This document shows positions 12,200-23,449 of a stretch of DNA of 64,000 bases, in pieces; position 1 is the first letter of the stretch; each line of letters starts with the position of its first letter. Origin of the DNA: Leptolyngbya sp. BL-A-14 (GTDB lineage: Bacteria > Cyanobacteriota > Cyanobacteriia > Leptolyngbyales > Leptolyngbyaceae); contig CP166621.1 of assembly GCA_041937185.1 (NCBI GenBank), forward strand, positions 2,068,571 through 2,132,570, in the 5' to 3' direction. Below the pieces are notes generated by a model. That model was given only the letters and a program-made list of their open reading frames with translations, was not told the DNA's origin and did no database searches. Position numbers and translations under genes: made by a program.

Positions 12200-13684
12200 G
12201 TGTCTGAACCGAATTTAGCCTACAGTGCCTTGATGTCAGAGAGTAGACACTCTGACGATCGGAGCCTGCTGGAGACTGTGCCATTAGATGCAGGAAACAT
12301 CAGCCCGTCCCCTGGAGCAGCGATCGCTCAAGGCACAGAATCACTAAAGAACTATTTAGACGCCTGGGTCGCCACTCATCACGAGACCAATGCGATTGAT
12401 CCTGAGTTTATTGCGGCCCTCACCCAACATGCCACTATTGCACTGGAGTCTCAGCGACGGCAGTGGGAACAGGAGCAGGAATTCTTGCGCACTGAGCTAA
12501 GACAGGCGCGATCACACTCTCACGAGCAACTTGAACGCATCCGTCATTTGGAGCAAGCACTGGATCAATCGGTTGCCTCGCTACGTGAAATGCGACTCCA
12601 GGCCGTCGATCAGCAGCTTCTAGAAGCACAGCTTGCCTCAACGGAAGAAATTTCTAACATTCAGCAGCAGGCGATCGCACGATTAAAGCTACAGTTGGCA
12701 CAGCAACAGCAGGCGTTAGACGCTCAACTGGTTGAAACGCAAACGCGCGATCGCTCCCTGCAGACGCTTTTGCACACGATGGAAGCGCTCACCCAGGCAC
12801 AGCAGCAGGAGCTAACCCAATTACAGACTCAGATTGCCTGCGATCGCGCCGACGTGCAAGCATATCAACACCAGTTGGAAGAACAGCTGGAGCACCTGCA
12901 AACAGACTTGCAAACCCAGCAAGCCCGCGCTACGGCTCTAGAAGCCCAATCTCTCGATGCGTGCGCTTTGGCGAAGCATTTAGCCGCACGCTTAGAGCAA
13001 GCTCACGCTCAGGTCAGCGAACTCTCACAGATTCTGAGCGATCGCCAGGCCGCACTTGGGCAACTGGAGGTAGAGATCCAGCAAGCACACGTCACCTTGC
13101 AGGAGCAACAGGCATTGCTGGATCGGCTGCAACAAGCCCACCCGCAGCAAACTTCGACGGGTGTGCTCGTGTCTTCCAGCACAACGACAGAGAGCCGCCC
13201 TCCAGCCATCACCCCCGATTTAGCCACTGCCCACGCCAAAATTGTGGCGCTCGAAGCCCAGGCAGCGAAACAAACAACCGCTCAAGCCATGCTCAGGCAT
13301 GCCTGCCAGGAACTTGAAGAAGAGCGCGATCGTCAGCACGTTCGGCTGACAGAGCTGGAACAGCAGACGAATGACATGCAAGAGCAGATTTTGCGGCAGG
13401 CCCAGCAAGCCAGTGAGTATGAAACCGCCATCCAGCACTGGAAAGATCGATGCTTTAGCAGCCAAAGCGGGGTACTCAAGCTGAAAGCCCTGCTAGAGAG
13501 CGTTTTACCAAACCCTCCGGCTGAGCTATCAGACGTGTTAGCGGTGCTGCTGGCTGCTGCGAATGAAACCACTGAACCTGGTAGCCCTGGTTTGCTACCC
13601 CCAACGCCCTTCAATCGTGAACCCAAAGTCGATCTCCCAGACTTCTTGATCCGACGTCGCAATCACAAAACGCGGCGATCGTAG
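12200..13684 (+). CDS. Gln/Leu/Ala-rich coiled-coil protein (494 aa)
   Basis: Long heptad-like Q/L/E/A repeats. No enzymatic motif. Confidence 0.55.
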   Translation: MSEPNLAYSALMSESRHSDDRSLLETVPLDAGNISPSPGAAIAQGTESLKNYLDAWVATHHETNAIDPEFIAALTQHATIALESQRRQWEQEQEFLRTELRQARSHSHEQLERIRHLEQALDQSVASLREMRLQAVDQQLLEAQLASTEEISNIQQQAIARLKLQLAQQQQALDAQLVETQTRDRSLQTLLHTMEALTQAQQQELTQLQTQIACDRADVQAYQHQLEEQLEHLQTDLQTQQARATALEAQSLDACALAKHLAARLEQAHAQVSELSQILSDRQAALGQLEVEIQQAHVTLQEQQALLDRLQQAHPQQTSTGVLVSSSTTTESRPPAITPDLATAHAKIVALEAQAAKQTTAQAMLRHACQELEEERDRQHVRLTELEQQTNDMQEQILRQAQQASEYETAIQHWKDRCFSSQSGVLKLKALLESVLPNPPAELSDVLAVLLAAANETTEPGSPGLLPPTPFNREPKVDLPDFLIRRRNHKTRRS

Positions 13685-13717: not shown

Positions 13718-15274
13718 TCAAGCTGTTGGTTCTGGCTGCTCTATAGGGAGTTTGATCACAAATTTAGTGCCCTGCCCAAGAGTAGAGAAGCATTGCAGGG
13801 AACCTTTATGCTTTTCCGTCACGATTTGATGGCTAATAGACATCCCAAGTCCCGTTCCCTTCCCCATTTCCTTTGTCGTAAAGAAGGGTTCAAACAATCG
13901 CTGTCTGACCTGTTCTGGCATACCACCAGCGTTATCAGCAATTTGAATCGTGACCCAACCAGGTTCCGTAACGGCTGTAGAAAGATGGATTTTGGGTGAA
14001 AACGAAGCCATTGCTTCAACGGTTTCGCTGGCTTCTTGGGTCTGCTGTTTGTACCCCATCCGTTCTTCCAGTGCATCAATCGCATTGCTAAGAATGTTCA
14101 TAAACACTTGATTCAACTGCCCACCAGAGCATTCCACTTTAGGCAACGCTCCATAATCCTTCAGGATTACAATGGCTGGACGAGCGGCGCAGGCCTTCAA
14201 ACGGTTGTCGAGAATCAGGAGAGTGCTATCAATGCCTTCATGGATATCGATCGCTTTCGTTTCAGATTCGTCCAATCGTGAGAAGACGCGGAGAGACTTA
14301 ACAATCTCCCGAATGCGCTCGGTGCCAACTCGCATAGAAGCAAGTAATTTGGGTAAATCTTCAGCCAAAAAATCAACTTCGATCGCGGCTGACTTTAGCT
14401 GAATTGCCGCCGTCGGTGCAGGGTACTCTGTCTGATAGAGCGCCAGCAGTTCAAGCAAATCTTCCATGTACTCATTCGCATGAGACAGGTTGCCGTGGAT
14501 GAAATTAACGGGGTTGTTGATTTCATGCGCCACACCTGCCACCAACTGCCCCAGCGTAGACATCTTTTCGCTCTGAACAAGCTGCACCTGGGCATGTTGA
14601 AGCTGATGGAGCGATCGCTCTAATTGCTCGGCCTTCTCACGTTCTCTCGCTTCACTCACCCGTAGTGCAGCTTCTGTCTCTTTCCGCTGTAGAATCTCCA
14701 ATTCCAGATTACGGCTAGTTTCCAATGCTTTCATCAGGGTAGAAAACGCCCTCAACGCGGTTACAACAGCAATAAACAGTCGTTGTGACGTTAGCTCAGT
14801 TTTCGTTTTGTAATCATCAATGCCGTAGTTTACAACAACGAGGTTTTCGGGTGCTTGCCCCGGTTGTCCAGTGCGTAAAATGATGCGAACAAGTTGATTA
14901 CCTAACTGTTCACGAACAAATTTCACGACCTGCAAGCCTGCATCCTCAGCTTCCATGACCACGTCTAGCAAAACAACCGCAATGTCAGGATGAGTCCGAA
15001 TAATTTGTCTGGCTTCCTGCCCCGAATAGGCATGCAAGAAGCTTAATGTTTTACCCTCCAGGGTAAAGTCACTGAGTGCCAATTCGGTAACTTGATGCAC
15101 TTCTACTTCATCATCTGCAATCAGCACTTTCCAGCTTGCTATAGGTGAATTTTCTATTTCTTCAGCAAAAGGGACTGCTTCTTGCTCATCCGCAAACACT
15201 AATTCATCACTCTGGTTCGTAGCAAATTCTTGCATGATTTGTAAGCTCGTCTTTTTTGTGGATGAGAGGCTCAA
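13718..15274 (-). CDS. Hybrid response-regulator receiver / histidine kinase
   Basis: REC domain (LIADDE...LLDVVM), HisKA H-box AHEINNP, and HATPase_c motifs. Confidence 0.85.
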   Translation of the reverse strand: MSLSSTKKTSLQIMQEFATNQSDELVFADEQEAVPFAEEIENSPIASWKVLIADDEVEVHQVTELALSDFTLEGKTLSFLHAYSGQEARQIIRTHPDIAVVLLDVVMEAEDAGLQVVKFVREQLGNQLVRIILRTGQPGQAPENLVVVNYGIDDYKTKTELTSQRLFIAVVTALRAFSTLMKALETSRNLELEILQRKETEAALRVSEAREREKAEQLERSLHQLQHAQVQLVQSEKMSTLGQLVAGVAHEINNPVNFIHGNLSHANEYMEDLLELLALYQTEYPAPTAAIQLKSAAIEVDFLAEDLPKLLASMRVGTERIREIVKSLRVFSRLDESETKAIDIHEGIDSTLLILDNRLKACAARPAIVILKDYGALPKVECSGGQLNQVFMNILSNAIDALEERMGYKQQTQEASETVEAMASFSPKIHLSTAVTEPGWVTIQIADNAGGMPEQVRQRLFEPFFTTKEMGKGTGLGMSISHQIVTEKHKGSLQCFSTLGQGTKFVIKLPIEQPEPTA

Positions 15275-15361: not shown

Positions 15362-18202
15362 TTAGCTGTCTGTCAATGCTTCGAGACACATGGGAATTTT
15401 GAGCGTGAATTGTGTTTTCAAACCGGGTTGGCTCTCACAATGGATGGTTCCACCCATTTTTTGTGTCACCAAGTTGTAAACAATGTGTAGGCCTAATCCG
15501 CTACCACCTTGCCCTCGCTTTGTGGTAAAGAATGGCTCAAAAATTTTGTTTAGATGATCAGGAAGAATTCCTTTGCCATTATCGCCATAGACAAAGATAA
15601 GATGCTCATCTACTTGTTGGAATTCAATTGTGATTATGCCTCGATCGCCCTCGTTATAAGCATGAATCACTGAATTCATAATCAGGTTTGTCAAGATTTG
15701 AGAAAAGACACCTGGATAATTATCCAAACACAAATCATGATCACCGTGAATGTGTATGGTATGCCCAAGCGGCTTTAACTTCGGGCTCAGCTGAAGTAGA
15801 ATCTCTTCCAAATAGGTCTTAATGTTAAAGCGACGTCTCGTTTCACTCGATTGATCAACCGCAATCTGTTTAAAGCTGTGGATCAGTTCAGCCGCGCGAT
15901 TAAGATTTGCCAGTGTCATCTTGCTACTCTGAGTCGCCAACTCTAGAAATTTTGCTAAATCAGAACGTTTCATGGAGCCATTACTAAAGCTCTGTGCAAA
16001 TGCTTCTGTTTTTTCTACTAATAAAGAGGCGGCTGTAACACCAATGCCGATCGGAGTATTAATTTCGTGAGCAATGCCTGCAACTAAACCACCTAATGCC
16101 GCCATTTTCTCTGTTTGAATGAGTTGCTCTTCAGCCTGCTTCAAATTATGCAGCGTTTGCTCAAGCTGTTTTGCTTTTTCTTGCACTTTCGCTTCTGCCT
16201 GTTCGCGCTCCTTCACTTCTTGCTGAAGCTGAAGGTTTTGTTTATCAAGTTCTATTTGTGCCAACTCACGACTTTCCTGCGCCAGAACCAACCACCACGA
16301 GCCCATACCAATTAAGACTAACAAGGCAGCATAAACTTCAATCAGCGTGATAAAAGCCCTTCTGGAGGCGTCTAAGGGGGCAGTCATCACTGTCTCAGTT
16401 TGATGATAGTAAGCGAACCCAAACATAACGCCAACAATGCCAGCAATGCTCAAAAAGATTGTGAGGTACTTGAGCATTCTGCCCACTAAATCAGAGGGTA
16501 TTTTATCTTGAAAAACCGTTTGTGCAATGGTTTGAGCAAGATTCAAAAGCGGGTAAGAATTTTGTTTGGTGGGCTCTTTGCACACATCATGGCAGCGGGC
16601 ATTCAGACTACAACATAAGGAACAGATAGCTCCTTCATAAACCGGACAATGTGCAATATCGTATGATTCGTACTCACCATCACACACGCGACAGCGCACC
16701 ACATTTAAGGAGAGTGCTGTTTGATTTTGATAATGAGTGTTTGAGCGAGCAATATAGTATTTACTTTTAGTGAGGACAGCGATCACAGGTGCCAACACAA
16801 AGGCTAAACCCAACGCAATTAAGGGAGCATAGGCCTGAGCGATCGACCCCAAGGCTCCCGTAAACGCCACGATGGAAACCAGTGAGCCAATCACCATTGA
16901 CCCAAACCCAACCGGGTTCACGTTGTAGAGGTGTGCTCGCTTAAACTCGATATATGAAGGGCTGAGTCCTAAAGGTTTATTAATGATCAAATCAGCCACG
17001 ATCGCGCCGACCCAGGCGATCGCCACATTCGAGTAAAATCCCAACACTATTTCCAGGGTTGAAAACACATCCAGTTCCATTAACAGAAGGGCGATCGTGA
17101 CGTTAAAAACGAGCCACACAACGCGCCCCGGATGGCTATGCGTTAGTCTCGAAAAAAAATTGGACCACGCCAATGAGCCTGCGTAGGCATTCATAACGTT
17201 GATTTTGATTTGCGACAGCACCACGTACAAAATCGTGACGGCTAGCGCAATGTCTGGATTTGAGAAAACGTACTCAAACCCCACCAAATACATTTGCGTC
17301 GGCTCATTAGCGCGCGACAGGCTGACCCCATGACTTACGGCCAGTGACGCCAAAAAAGCTCCTGCTAGCTGCTTCAAGGCTGCCAGCAAAATCCAGCCTG
17401 GGCCTGCAAACACTACAGCAAACCACCACTTGCCTCGATTGGTCGCTTCTGGGTTTGGCAGAAACCGCAAAATGTCTACCTGTTCACCAATTTGAGCAAT
17501 CAGCGAGAAGGATACCGTTGCGGCCGCACCTAAGAGCAGCGGACTAAAGGCAGTACCGCTTGGCGATCGACCTGCAAATTGAATCCAATGAGAGAGCGCT
17601 TCCGGTTCCTTATACAGAATGCAGCCGAAGGGCAACAGCAACAAGACAAGCCAGAGGGGTTGGGTCCACAGCTGGAGTTGGTTAATCAGGGTGATCCCAA
17701 AAAACACCAACGGGATCACAAGCAAGGAACAAACGACATAGCCGATCGCTAGCGGTAGATGAAAATACAGTTCCAACGCTTGCGCCATAATGGCCGCTTC
17801 GAGCGCAAAGAAAATGAAGGTAAACGATGCGTAGATAAGCGACGTAATCGTCGAACCAATGTACCCAAATCCTGCACCACGGGTCAGCAAGTCCATATCA
17901 ATGTTGAACTTGGCCGCATAGTAAGTAATCGGCAATCCTGTCAGAAAAATGATGCCCGATGCCAGCAGGATGCCCCATAGCGAGTTTGTGAACCCATAGC
18001 TGATGGCGATCGAAGCGCCGATGGCTTCCAGTGCAACCGCCGAAATGCCCCCGATCGCAGTGTTGGCAACCAGAAACTCTGACCAGGTGCGGAAGGATTT
18101 AGGTGCAAAGCGCAGGGCGTAATCTTCAATCGTCTCCGTAGCAACCCAGGCATTGTAATCACGGCGATCCTGAACAACCTTGAGGCTTGGATTAGTTTGC
18201 AT
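15362..18202 (-). CDS. Sensor histidine kinase with N-terminal ~12-TM permease-like (NCS1-like) domain and a Cys-rich segment
   Basis: Start set at the internal ATG at 18202 (MQTNPSLKV). About 500 aa polytopic domain, Cys cluster, coiled coil, H-box AHEINTP, HATPase. Confidence 0.75.
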   Translation of the reverse strand: MQTNPSLKVVQDRRDYNAWVATETIEDYALRFAPKSFRTWSEFLVANTAIGGISAVALEAIGASIAISYGFTNSLWGILLASGIIFLTGLPITYYAAKFNIDMDLLTRGAGFGYIGSTITSLIYASFTFIFFALEAAIMAQALELYFHLPLAIGYVVCSLLVIPLVFFGITLINQLQLWTQPLWLVLLLLPFGCILYKEPEALSHWIQFAGRSPSGTAFSPLLLGAAATVSFSLIAQIGEQVDILRFLPNPEATNRGKWWFAVVFAGPGWILLAALKQLAGAFLASLAVSHGVSLSRANEPTQMYLVGFEYVFSNPDIALAVTILYVVLSQIKINVMNAYAGSLAWSNFFSRLTHSHPGRVVWLVFNVTIALLLMELDVFSTLEIVLGFYSNVAIAWVGAIVADLIINKPLGLSPSYIEFKRAHLYNVNPVGFGSMVIGSLVSIVAFTGALGSIAQAYAPLIALGLAFVLAPVIAVLTKSKYYIARSNTHYQNQTALSLNVVRCRVCDGEYESYDIAHCPVYEGAICSLCCSLNARCHDVCKEPTKQNSYPLLNLAQTIAQTVFQDKIPSDLVGRMLKYLTIFLSIAGIVGVMFGFAYYHQTETVMTAPLDASRRAFITLIEVYAALLVLIGMGSWWLVLAQESRELAQIELDKQNLQLQQEVKEREQAEAKVQEKAKQLEQTLHNLKQAEEQLIQTEKMAALGGLVAGIAHEINTPIGIGVTAASLLVEKTEAFAQSFSNGSMKRSDLAKFLELATQSSKMTLANLNRAAELIHSFKQIAVDQSSETRRRFNIKTYLEEILLQLSPKLKPLGHTIHIHGDHDLCLDNYPGVFSQILTNLIMNSVIHAYNEGDRGIITIEFQQVDEHLIFVYGDNGKGILPDHLNKIFEPFFTTKRGQGGSGLGLHIVYNLVTQKMGGTIHCESQPGLKTQFTLKIPMCLEALTDS

Positions 18203-18598
18203 GGAACACTGAAGGATGAGCGGTTGGTTTAAGCGTGTTGTCTTAAAGCAGTAGATGATTGATGCAGCGACAGTCTTGATGACTGCCAATCATGAGTGAC
18301 GAAGCTTGGCTGTGACAAACGTCAGTAAGCGTGACTGTAATTTAGACGGCGCGATCGTTCTGCTCTCATAAATCCCTAAGAGAGTACAAAAATCAACAAA
18401 TGTAAAAATCAACCTGAGAGTATGAGGCCTCTCGCTTCGCCTGGGACTTTATGGGCGGTAGTGCGGTTTCAAGTGGGTGTCTCACCACGTTGGCACGCCT
18501 GTAGAAGACCCTCTCAGGATGGTTTAAAGGTTAGAAATTATGTCATCCTGGGATAGGCCGCTATTGTGTGTGATGTTCTCAATTCCCAAGGCAGACCC

Positions 18599-19753
18599 AT
18601 GGACGACAAGTTGATGCTGATGATTCCCGGCCCCACTCCGGTGCCAGAGCAGGTTTTACTCGCAATGGCGAAGCACCCGATCGGGCATCGTAGCGGCGAC
18701 TTTTCCAAAATCATGGCGGAAGTTACTGATGGATTGAAATGGCTGCACCAAACCCAAAATGACGTACTGAGCTTAACGGTGAGCGGTACAGGTGCAGTTG
18801 AAGCAGCAATCATCAACTTTTTGAGTCCGGGCGATCGTGTCCTGGTCGGCAGCAATGGCAAGTTTGGTGAGCGGTGGGTAGAAGTTTCCCAAGCCTATGG
18901 TTTGAACGTTGAGCCAATCAAGGCGGAGTGGGGGCAGGCACTTGACCCAGAGAAGTTTCGGGAGGCCTTAGAGGCTGACACGCAAAAGACGATCAAAGCC
19001 GTCATCATCACTCACAGCGAAACGTCAACGGGGGTGTTGAATGATCTGGAAACCATTAACCGTCACGTCAAAGCGCACGGAGAAGCACTCATCATCGTTG
19101 ATACCGTAACCAGCCTCGGTTCTTACAATCTACCGATCGATGCTTGGGGGTTGGATGTTGTGGCTTCTGGTTCTCAAAAGGGCTATATGGTGCCTCCGGG
19201 CTTAGGCTTCGTTGCGGTTAACGCAAGAGCATGGGAAGCGTACAAAACGGCTAAGCTCCCCCGGTACTATCTGGATTTAGGCAAGTATCGTAAAGATGCG
19301 GCGAAAAACACCACTCCCTTCACGCCGCCGGTCAATATGTTTTTTGCTTTGCAGGTTGCACTACGCATGATGCAGGCAGAAGGGCTAGAAAACATTTTTG
19401 CCCGCCACCAACGCCTGACAAACGCCACTCGTGCCGCTGTAAAAGCATTGGGATTACCGTTGTTGGCTCCCGATCAGTCAGCGAGTCCGGCGATTACGTC
19501 TGTGATCCCTGATCGCGTTGATGCTGAGCAAGTGCGCGCTGTCATGAAAAAGCGGTACGACATTATTCTTGCAGGCGGGCAGGACCACCTCAAAGGCAAG
19601 ATTTTCCGCATTGGGCATCTAGGCTTTGTCAGCGATCGCGACATTTTGACTGCGATCGGTGCTTTAGAGGCAACGTTACAAGAACTTGGCTACGAAAGCT
19701 TTACCCCCGGAAGTGGTGTAGCAGCGGCAGCCAAAGTTTTTGCTTCAGCGTAA
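18599..19753 (+). CDS. Class V aminotransferase (serine-pyruvate / alanine-glyoxylate family)
   Basis: PGPTPVP N-terminus and SGSQKGYMVPPGLGF PLP-lysine region. Confidence 0.85.
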   Translation: MDDKLMLMIPGPTPVPEQVLLAMAKHPIGHRSGDFSKIMAEVTDGLKWLHQTQNDVLSLTVSGTGAVEAAIINFLSPGDRVLVGSNGKFGERWVEVSQAYGLNVEPIKAEWGQALDPEKFREALEADTQKTIKAVIITHSETSTGVLNDLETINRHVKAHGEALIIVDTVTSLGSYNLPIDAWGLDVVASGSQKGYMVPPGLGFVAVNARAWEAYKTAKLPRYYLDLGKYRKDAAKNTTPFTPPVNMFFALQVALRMMQAEGLENIFARHQRLTNATRAAVKALGLPLLAPDQSASPAITSVIPDRVDAEQVRAVMKKRYDIILAGGQDHLKGKIFRIGHLGFVSDRDILTAIGALEATLQELGYESFTPGSGVAAAAKVFASA

Positions 19754-22753: not shown

Positions 22754-23449
22754 TTAGGCTTCGCGCATGACATAGCCAACACCACGAACCGTTTGGATCA
22801 GACGCTTTTCGCCTTCGTCTTCAATTTTCAGCCGCAGGTAGCGAATATAGACTTCAATTACATTCGATTCGCCAACAAAGTCATATCCCCACACGTTCTC
22901 AAGGATTTGTTCTCGTGTCAGGACTTCGCGAGGATGCTCCATCAAGTATTTGAGTAGTTCAAATTCTTTCATCGTCAAATCGATCGCCCGTCCGTTTCGT
23001 AAAGCACGACGAGTTGAAAGATCTAAAATCAGGTCGCCAAAGCGTAAGCGTTCACTGGCGGGGTTATCTGGCTGGAGGTAAAGACGTACCAACTTGAGAA
23101 ATTCTTCAGTCCGGTAGGGCTTCAGGAAGTAATCATCTGCGCCAGCTTCCAGGCATGCAACCCGATCATCCACGCTATCCCGAGCCATCATGAGCAACAC
23201 TGGTACGCGGTTGCCAAGCGATCGCAAACGGTTGCAAAACCATAGCCCTGACTCGCCTACCAACATGCGATCGACCACAATCAGTGAAGGCTGTAACTCT
23301 GTGGCTTGACGCAGTCCAACAATAGCATCGGGTGCCATCACAATCTCATAGCCAGACTCTTTAAGGTCAAGGCTGACGTGGTTTGCCAGCGCTTCATCGG
23401 TTTCAACCAGCAGCACGCAAGGGGTTGAGTCAGGCAGAACGCTATTCAT
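22754..23449 (-). CDS. OmpR-family response regulator (receiver + winged helix)
   Basis: REC with conserved Asp (LIVVDRM) and Lys (FLKPY). C-terminal trans_reg_C (VWGYDF...VYIRYLRLKIE). Confidence 0.85.
   Translation of the reverse strand: MNSVLPDSTPCVLLVETDEALANHVSLDLKESGYEIVMAPDAIVGLRQATELQPSLIVVDRMLVGESGLWFCNRLRSLGNRVPVLLMMARDSVDDRVACLEAGADDYFLKPYRTEEFLKLVRLYLQPDNPASERLRFGDLILDLSTRRALRNGRAIDLTMKEFELLKYLMEHPREVLTREQILENVWGYDFVGESNVIEVYIRYLRLKIEDEGEKRLIQTVRGVGYVMREA

Follow-up and report, generated by a model that had tools for sequence, protein, structure and literature searches.

The kinase gene and its product

The window analysed here, a 64,000-nucleotide stretch of the genome of the cyanobacterium Leptolyngbya sp. 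BL-A-14, carries on its minus strand, at 15362-18202, the gene for a sensor histidine kinase in which a whole transporter-like domain of 12 transmembrane (TM) helices is followed by a module of eight cysteines, two more TM helices, a coiled coil and the kinase core. Downstream of it, on the same strand (13718-15235), lies the gene for a hybrid of a receiver (REC) and a second histidine kinase, hereafter REC-HK. The interpretation that we favour, with slightly more confidence than doubt, is that the first protein is a transceptor-type sensor histidine kinase for short-chain amides or urea, with the eight-Cys module as its probable two-zinc coupling domain. Its open reading frame (ORF) spans 15362-18289 if opened at a TTG; from the ATG at 18202, the start backed by every aligned homologue (the protein search returned at least 120 of full length), it encodes 946 residues plus the stop codon. 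The product is 100% identical to the NCBI entry 'ATP-binding protein [Leptolyngbya sp. BL-A-14]' (P0001), and the coordinates 15362-18202 given in a preliminary description of this DNA, made from the sequence without database searches, are thus right.

Kyte-Doolittle hydropathy gives 12 hydrophobic peaks within residues 45-480, the same helices being seen in an AlphaFold model of residues 1-547, and two further peaks near residues 588 and 625. By the positive-inside count (Lys plus Arg, 23 inside vs 4 outside), the kinase, the N-terminus and the segment that follows TM12 are all cytoplasmic. The 12-TM domain, with a predicted LeuT fold of the CodB-like, NCS1-like type, covers approximately residues 25-480 (16763-18130), and the Cys module, defined by translation and by its invariant cysteines, residues 504-541 (16580-16693). 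A TM13-TM14 hairpin (approximately residues 578-640; 16283-16471), recognised by hydropathy and the topology count, has an outside loop of about 20 residues and brings the chain back to the cytoplasm. The putative coiled coil or signalling helix behind it (approximately residues 641-700; 16103-16282) is a heptad-like, charged helix called by eye, without a predictor, and from its conservation in the alignment. The DHp, or HisKA, region at 15833-16096 contains the putative phospho-accepting His712 in the H-box AHEINTP; its HisKA match, residues 703-761, stays under the Pfam cut-off (16.8-20 bits vs 26.9), and H712, E713, N715 and P717 of the motif H-E-x-N-x-P are invariant in the homologue alignment. 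The catalytic domain, HATPase_c (residues 834-938; 15389-15703), is matched by PF02518 with 83.5 bits (E 1.8e-23), and its N839, N843, D874, G876 and G878, its FEPFFTTK motif and the stretch G900-L905 are likewise all invariant among homologues, while NCBIfam kinase models span residues 645-938. Judged by sequence, then, the protein has both the N, G1, F and G2 boxes of HATPase_c and the histidine in the DHp helix that define a histidine kinase, and its catalytic core is complete. No PAS domain was found in it by the Pfam scan. The preliminary description had placed two further TM helices, a coiled coil and a kinase core after the Cys segment and had called for a check of the topology; hydropathy, the AlphaFold model and Pfam agree with that order and with a count of 12 plus 2 helices, and we are highly confident of the architecture and fold of the protein.

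The transmembrane domain is an outlying NCS1 relative

Pfam and NCBIfam scans of residues 1-488 returned no match, even at E<=10 and with PF02133 included, and a single-sequence phmmer search against PDB sequences returned nothing. A profile built from 17 diverse modules of the family, on the other hand, matches the cytosine permease CodB (7QOA) with an E of 2.6e-7 over TM1-TM6, where the alignment ends. The AlphaFold model of residues 1-547 has a pLDDT of 86.1 and a pTM of 0.88, and the Foldseek search with it places CodB and Mhp1 at the top (E 6e-10 to 1e-6), with structures of the SSS family scoring below those of NCS1. A distant member of the family, P0232, aligns with the full length of the Pfam model Transp_cyt_pur at 17.9 bits, under the cut-off of 23.5, and automated names point the same way, the kinase being 'histidine kinase/purine-cytosine permease-like' at JGI and its stand-alone relatives 'purine-cytosine permease family protein' at NCBI. 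Taken together, these findings make the 12-TM domain an outlying branch of NCS1 rather than a canonical member: it does not reach the gathering score of PF02133, and its 12-TM LeuT fold is nearest to solved NCS1 structures. The missed Pfam and NCBIfam matches reflect the sensitivity of the hidden Markov models (HMMs), not absent homology. The preliminary description had called this region an NCS1-like 12-TM domain and proposed to abandon the call if no transporter family matched in an HMM search; the call holds, even though standard HMMs overlook the relationship, and that rule, taken at face value, would have rejected it wrongly. Compared to CodB and Mhp1 (NCS1, TC 2.A.39; PDB 7QOA, 2JLN), with which it is only 15-19% identical, the domain adds the C-terminal eight-Cys module, fused signalling outputs and unusually conserved cytoplasmic loops.

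The resemblance raises the alternative of a classical NCS1 system, where a nucleobase, allantoin, hydantoin or vitamin would be bound or transported and reported by the kinase. The nearest solved structures are, after all, cytosine and hydantoin permeases, and the automated names include 'allantoin permease' besides 'purine-cytosine permease-like'. However, in CodB the nucleobase is sandwiched between W108 and F204, an aromatic pair conserved across NCS1, and is hydrogen-bonded by Q105 (PMC9379551). In the HMM alignment, which is one of sequences and not of superposed structures, W108, F204 and Q105 fall on F131, L234 and T128 of the window protein, so that only one position of the base-stacking pair, F131, is aromatic. 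CodB and the window protein both end TM6 with a D-x2-R-F motif. With Leu in place of F204 and Thr in place of Q105, the pocket is unlikely to hold a nucleobase.

The eight-Cys module

The Cys string comprises eight cysteines in 38 residues, and not the nine of the preliminary description, with the spacing C-x2-C-x11-C-x7-C-x2-C-C-x5-C-x3-C; given the amino-acid composition of the protein, a cluster like this has a chance expectation of about 4e-5. As to the conservation that the preliminary description had wished to see checked, an alignment of 30 full-length homologues shows all eight to be invariant. The pattern, always 38 residues long, persists in members only 33% identical, and 79 of the 80 metagenomic module ORFs carry it. 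By the positive-inside count the module is cytoplasmic; disulfide chemistry was considered for the cluster and rejected on that ground.

In the AlphaFold predictions this segment forms four short strands and a helix, with a pLDDT of 72-81 in the context of the membrane domain and a core pLDDT of 86-90 when the isolated module is modelled with 44 sequences. Foldseek with the isolated module found no significant match (best E 0.55); its top neighbours, all non-significant, are two-zinc cross-brace domains, namely RING/IBR, PHD, FYVE, ZZ and LIM. A profile search with the module gave only short matches to C2H2 knuckles (zinc knuckles), none of them significant. As neither search gave a significant match, the two-zinc reading can only be put conditionally, but eight invariant cytoplasmic cysteines would be compatible with two Cys4 zinc sites, and from the modelled fold we regard zinc binding as fairly probable. 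Like the cross-brace domains, the module has eight invariant ligand-type residues in about 40, predicted to form zinc-knuckle hairpins and then a short helix. Unlike them, its ligands would all be cysteines and it has no significant match in sequence or structure, its 2-11-7-2-0-5-3 spacing fits no named zinc family, and it is bacterial and membrane-tethered.

Distribution and conservation of the sensor module

A HMMER search with residues 1-545 returned 1,816 representatives (clusters at 50% identity) at E<=1e-3, of which 462 still pass at E<=1e-30. Across this family, whose range takes in cyanobacteria, soil proteobacteria and Klebsiella plasmids, the 12-TM domain and the eight-Cys motif occur together. 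Behind the module, 44 representatives show varied outputs: HATPase_c in 32, HisKA in 28, a receiver in 24, PAS in about 7, Hpt in 5, SpoIIE/PP2C in 3 and GGDEF plus EAL in 2, and several family proteins end directly after the Cys motif with no output domain at all. Given these varied outputs, and the proteins that end after the motif, the module is a general input or transport unit, and the Cys motif is part of it and not of the kinase. Cyanobacterial and proteobacterial modules are about 60% identical over 540 residues, which is unusually high for a sensor domain; the 12-TM domain is more strongly conserved than the rest of the protein, and the most invariant motifs lie in the cytoplasmic loops at 99-115, 341-360 and 408-430. 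Plasmids and chromids also carry the module, with 527 such records in all. Klebsiella plasmids account for 342 of these; many of the copies listed there score identically, and the kinase is annotated as 'ATP-binding protein', 'response regulator' or 'ArcB'.

This pattern of conservation bears on the possibility that the eight-Cys module is itself the sensor, through an Fe-S cluster or redox- or metal-reactive thiols responding to redox state, O2/NO or a metal, with the 12-TM domain mainly as an anchor. Eight invariant cysteines in a cytoplasmic segment are what such a sensor might have, AlphaFold2 is unable to tell Zn from Fe-S, and the C-x2-C-x11-C spacing of the first three cysteines is presumably that of the Fe-S sensor kinase NreB. 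In NreB-like kinases, however, a four-Cys site lies inside a PAS domain, whereas the window protein has eight in a hairpin module of about 40 residues and no PAS, and the spacing is also unlike the ferredoxin-type CxxCxxCxxxCP. Moreover, the cysteines are equally invariant in stand-alone permease-like proteins without signalling output, an anchor would not need the identity seen between cyanobacterial and proteobacterial 12-TM domains, the predicted pair of beta-hairpin knuckles with a helix resembles structural two-zinc domains, and the family is found beside amide and urea genes rather than redox or metal genes (see below). A sensor of this kind is thus quite unlikely, and the metal or redox sensing that the preliminary description had suggested as the input is, for the same reasons, not supported.

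A cyanobacterial subgroup, P0117-P0120, illustrates how the module can part from its kinase: its sensor module is 72-80% identical to that of the rest, while the kinase core is only about 34% identical, which suggests that the core has been replaced. By eye, the H-box of this subgroup (HEINNPVNFI) resembles that of the REC-HK in the window.

Many members of the family lie beside amide and urea genes

For the genomic context of the family, metagenome contigs were scanned with module-only sequences, which gave 80 loci, and neighbours within 9 kb were counted with UrtA-like, UrtB, UrtC, FmdA, AmiE and UreC homologues as queries; 70 loci of unrelated kinases, retrieved through the generic kinase motif F[ED]PFFTTK, served as the control. 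At least one homologue of these six lies at 47 of the 80 module loci but at only 1 of the 70 control loci (Fisher p 5.8e-16), and a REC-LuxR regulator lies downstream within the same distance at 41 of 80 module loci and at no control locus (0/70; Fisher p 9e-15). With the count restricted to the 43 module loci that have at least 5 kb of upstream sequence, 28 carry amide or urea genes. We therefore consider a link between the family and the utilisation of amides or urea likely.

Individual loci show what these clusters contain. In cyanobacteria, the kinase and a REC-MarR regulator are accompanied by CN_hydrolase, FmdA, a zinc-ribbon (FmdB-type) gene and a Urt-type binding protein in Leptolyngbya NIES-3755 (L001), by a Urt-type binding protein, two permeases and an ATPase in Chroococcidiopsis TS-821 (L002), and by a full Urt-type transporter, FmdA, a zinc-ribbon (FmdB-type) gene and CN_hydrolase in Leptolyngbya SIO1E4 (L085). 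In the last of these, NCBIfam models identify UrtB, UrtC, UrtD and UrtE over their cut-offs, the UrtA-like binding protein at 418 bits under its cut-off, the formamidase FmdA (681 bits), FmdB and an aliphatic amidase (700 bits). A further cyanobacterial cluster (L086) has FmdA, the zinc-ribbon (FmdB-type) gene, the kinase and REC-MarR, and a gene for the alpha subunit of nitrile hydratase lies near them at L086:2611-3135; nitriles may feed the amide pathway in that genome.

In proteobacteria, hybrid kinases are followed by an overlapping gene for a REC-LuxR regulator of about 300 residues, with Urt-like genes beside them; at the high-GC proteobacterial loci the scan covered clear downstream genes. 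On the plasmid pBVIE02 of B. vietnamiensis G4 (L171, 2028-14423), amidase, FmdB, formamidase and five 'amino acid/amide ABC' genes stand in this order, divergent from an 'integral membrane sensor hybrid histidine kinase' and a LuxR regulator, and the block, on a conjugative Burkholderia plasmid, has Tn3 and IS elements on its flanks. On plasmid p1 of K. pneumoniae KpC11 (L173, 3894-13366), the one of the 342 Klebsiella plasmid records in which the neighbourhood was read, formamidase-urtEDCBA is divergent from the kinase. A stand-alone module with no output (566 residues, L090:7001-8701) in Carbonactinospora thermoautotrophica is divergent from ureABC-ureFGD (L090:2325-6738), a hint at a possible role as urea permease for the stand-alone form.

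It could be argued that these neighbours suit the classical NCS1 system equally well, since the breakdown of allantoin gives urea and could also account for urease and urt genes. However, the neighbours detected by the homology queries are formamidase, aliphatic amidase, Urt and urease genes, and no purine or pyrimidine catabolic gene occurs among the annotated genes of the Burkholderia and Klebsiella plasmid loci, although such genes were not among the homology queries. With the altered pocket and the absent PF02133 match added, a classical NCS1 ligand seems very unlikely.

A metagenomic cyanobacterial contig (L088) offers a curiosity in this context. A fusion of 901 residues, Ammonium_transp plus PAS plus HisKA/HATPase_c (L088:2674-5379, plus strand), lies there two genes upstream of a member of the family (L088:8001-10943), so that two nitrogen-linked transporter-kinase fusions stand together.

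A transceptor model and its relation to known systems

Given these genomic contexts, the transceptor-type sensing suggested in the preliminary description is the best reading of the protein. It can be hypothesized that the ligand bound by the 12-TM module, and perhaps also slowly carried across the membrane by it, is a small nitrogen compound, which from the neighbourhoods of the family would be a short-chain amide such as formamide or acetamide, and/or urea. By analogy, the rocking of the transporter driven by the ligand (alternating access) could be read at its conserved cytoplasmic face by the two-zinc eight-Cys module in a role like that of STAC, and the movement would then travel by way of the TM13-TM14 hairpin and the coiled coil to the DHp/CA core of the kinase, whose phosphorylation target would be the receiver in the product of the downstream gene. 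That product is, in most relatives, a predicted DNA-binding regulator, REC-MarR in cyanobacteria and REC-LuxR in proteobacteria, which presumably induces the urt-like genes, fmdA, amiE and ure. In the clade of the window copy, where the receiver is fused to a second kinase, the signal would instead enter a multi-step relay.

The closest functional parallels are the SLC5(SSS)-STAC-PAS kinases CbrA, CrbS and MxtR, which also have a whole LeuT-fold transporter N-terminal to a histidine kinase and a small cytoplasmic domain directly after the last transporter helix; the CbrA group, too, controls nutrient-utilisation genes. In CbrA this STAC domain docks under the SLC5 transporter core as the likely coupling element, and a role in passing on the motions of the core has been proposed for it (PMC13022988). 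If the eight-Cys module docked under its transporter in the same manner, that would also explain why the cytoplasmic loops are conserved. The differences are nonetheless considerable. The transporter of the CbrA group is of the SLC5 type with 13 TM helices, whereas that of the window protein is NCS1-like with 12; the linker is not the four-helix STAC but, as predicted, an eight-Cys beta-hairpin module, followed by two extra TM helices; PAS is missing, and the partners in the family are MarR-type, LuxR-type or REC-kinase proteins rather than the NtrC-type CbrB. The window protein has no Pfam match to SSF or STAC. By this analogy, it would work like the CbrA-type transceptors but is not one of them. 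Ks-Amt5 and other Amt-kinase fusions (PMC5764959) similarly use the fold of a nitrogen-compound transporter as the sensor of a fused kinase, but theirs is the trimeric Amt/Rh channel fold, with ammonium as the ligand and no Cys module.

Known regulators of the same pathways are of other kinds. Short-chain amides govern the expression of aliphatic amidase or formamidase through AmiC/AmiR, known from the amidase operon of Pseudomonas aeruginosa, and through FmdB. AmiC is a soluble sensor with the fold of a periplasmic binding protein that sequesters the antiterminator AmiR, with neither a kinase nor a membrane domain, whereas FmdB, a zinc-ribbon 'putative regulator', has its gene in the clusters that also hold the family kinase. 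Formamide and urea act as inducers of the fmd/ami/urt clusters (PMC10781810, PMC13209695), yet a 2024 review that discusses the regulation of amide and urea clusters names only FmdB and no sensor (PMC10781810). In P. veronii, the amiE-fmdAB-urtABCDE cluster reportedly occurs without amiC/amiR, and the genome paper of 2026 names no regulator (PMC13209695), which would fit a different sensor. Our literature search found no paper on an NCS1-kinase fusion, on this kinase family or on a sensor for these clusters.

To our knowledge, fusions of whole transporters to kinases are rare, and only the SLC5 and Amt types have been studied; CbrA itself has been called 'a rare transceptor' (PMC13022988). A transporter-fused sensor kinase as such is known; what is new here is the class of transporter and an unnamed, probable coupling domain, in a large, mobile and unstudied family. 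If the model is right, NCS1-like proteins would be a third transporter class for transporter-fused kinases, with a conserved coupling domain of their own, and a concrete candidate would be at hand for the unnamed sensor of the fmd/ami/urt clusters. Such a sensor could be of use in the control of formamide-based bioprocesses and in biosensors, and it would bear on nitrogen scavenging by cyanobacteria and on what a cargo module that is common on IncFIB plasmids of Klebsiella does. The broadest form of the proposal, towards which we are slightly more doubtful than confident, is that the inducer sensor still missing for formamide, acetamide and urea clusters is to be found in this very widespread, previously unrecognised family of NCS1-type transceptors, with a new eight-Cys coupling domain that probably binds two zinc ions and has no Pfam model, that its stand-alone form is a new kind of urea or amide permease, and that the window gene has been rewired into a kinase-to-kinase relay.

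The window copy and its partner

The product of the downstream gene, 505 residues from the likely start at ATG 15235 (rather than TTG 15274), consists of REC, HisKA and HATPase_c according to its Pfam domains and is 77% identical to a syntenic gene of Stenomitos; no terminator-like site was seen in the gap between the kinase and REC-HK genes. Over roughly its first 240 residues, the REC-HK shares 52-54% identity with the receivers of the REC-MarR proteins that follow orthologous kinases; the cognate receiver has thus been kept, and a kinase has taken the place of the DNA-binding output domain. The preliminary description had offered this REC-HK as a possible phosphorelay partner, which the identity of the receiver makes plausible, but its start at 15274 should probably be moved to 15235.

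Several observations weigh against reading the window copy, or its family, as a sensor of amides or urea. The ligand has been deduced solely from gene neighbourhoods, and 15 of the 43 well-flanked family loci (about 35%) are without amide or urea genes, as is the locus of the stand-alone copy in Streptomyces. The proposed coupling domain, as noted, found no significant structural match in Foldseek. No amidase, formamidase, urt or urease homologue was detected in the 64-kb window, and the partner there is a kinase and not a DNA-binding regulator, as it also is in Stenomitos and in Pantanalinema, where it is REC-PAS-HK. The adjoining catabolic genes and regulator by which an amide/urea two-component system would be recognised are thus found in the family, but not at the window copy, whose clade may sense or control something else. 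With no such neighbours and with a kinase in place of the MarR domain, the ligand and the output of the window copy are less certain than those of its relatives. On the other side, the window copy retains every family-invariant residue and, compared with cyanobacterial copies in amide clusters, is 70-75% identical in the sensor module and 65-72% identical in the kinase core. An amide- or urea-type input for the window copy, as in the family, therefore seems to us possible at slightly less than an even chance.

It can also be envisioned that the family senses amides or urea but that the clade of the window copy has been rewired into a different, global relay, for example for nitrogen or stress, and no longer serves an amide operon. 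The Stenomitos synteny, in which an aminotransferase gene, the kinase and the REC-HK follow one another, agrees with such a pathway, as do the Pantanalinema partner, the clearly swapped output on a conserved receiver and the window without amide genes. The close identity of the module to amide-cluster copies and its full set of invariant residues speak against it, however, and the catabolic genes of BL-A-14 may sit elsewhere in the 7.19-Mb contig. We consider this rewiring unlikely. It overlaps in mechanism with the amide/urea transceptor that we favour, as the output alone differs. For the transceptor, the most economical reading of the window copy is that the same kind of input feeds a multi-step relay with the final target beyond it.

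The surrounding genes are syntenic with those of Stenomitos, in which a class-V aminotransferase gene is likewise upstream and divergent and the REC-HK and a coiled-coil protein are encoded downstream. In the window, the aminotransferase of 395 residues is encoded at 18566-19753 on the plus strand, its counterpart in Stenomitos frigidus being L084:6536-7690 (Aminotran_5); a functional tie of the kinase gene to this enzyme, for instance through glyoxylate or ureide metabolism, is conceivable and was considered, but then dropped. On the other side, a gene at 12200-13684 on the plus strand, convergent with that of the REC-HK, encodes a glutamine-rich, coiled-coil-looking protein of 494 residues, and the syntenic Stenomitos gene (495 residues, L084:12526-14013) has no Pfam match. 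Finally, an ORF of 231 residues at 22754-23449 on the minus strand matches, by length and synteny, an OmpR-type regulator of Stenomitos (Response_reg plus Trans_reg_C, L084:2900-3595). The sensor kinase gene lies about 4.5 kb downstream of this ORF, and that of the REC-HK about 7.5 kb from it; its product would be an orphan regulator and could be the end of the relay.

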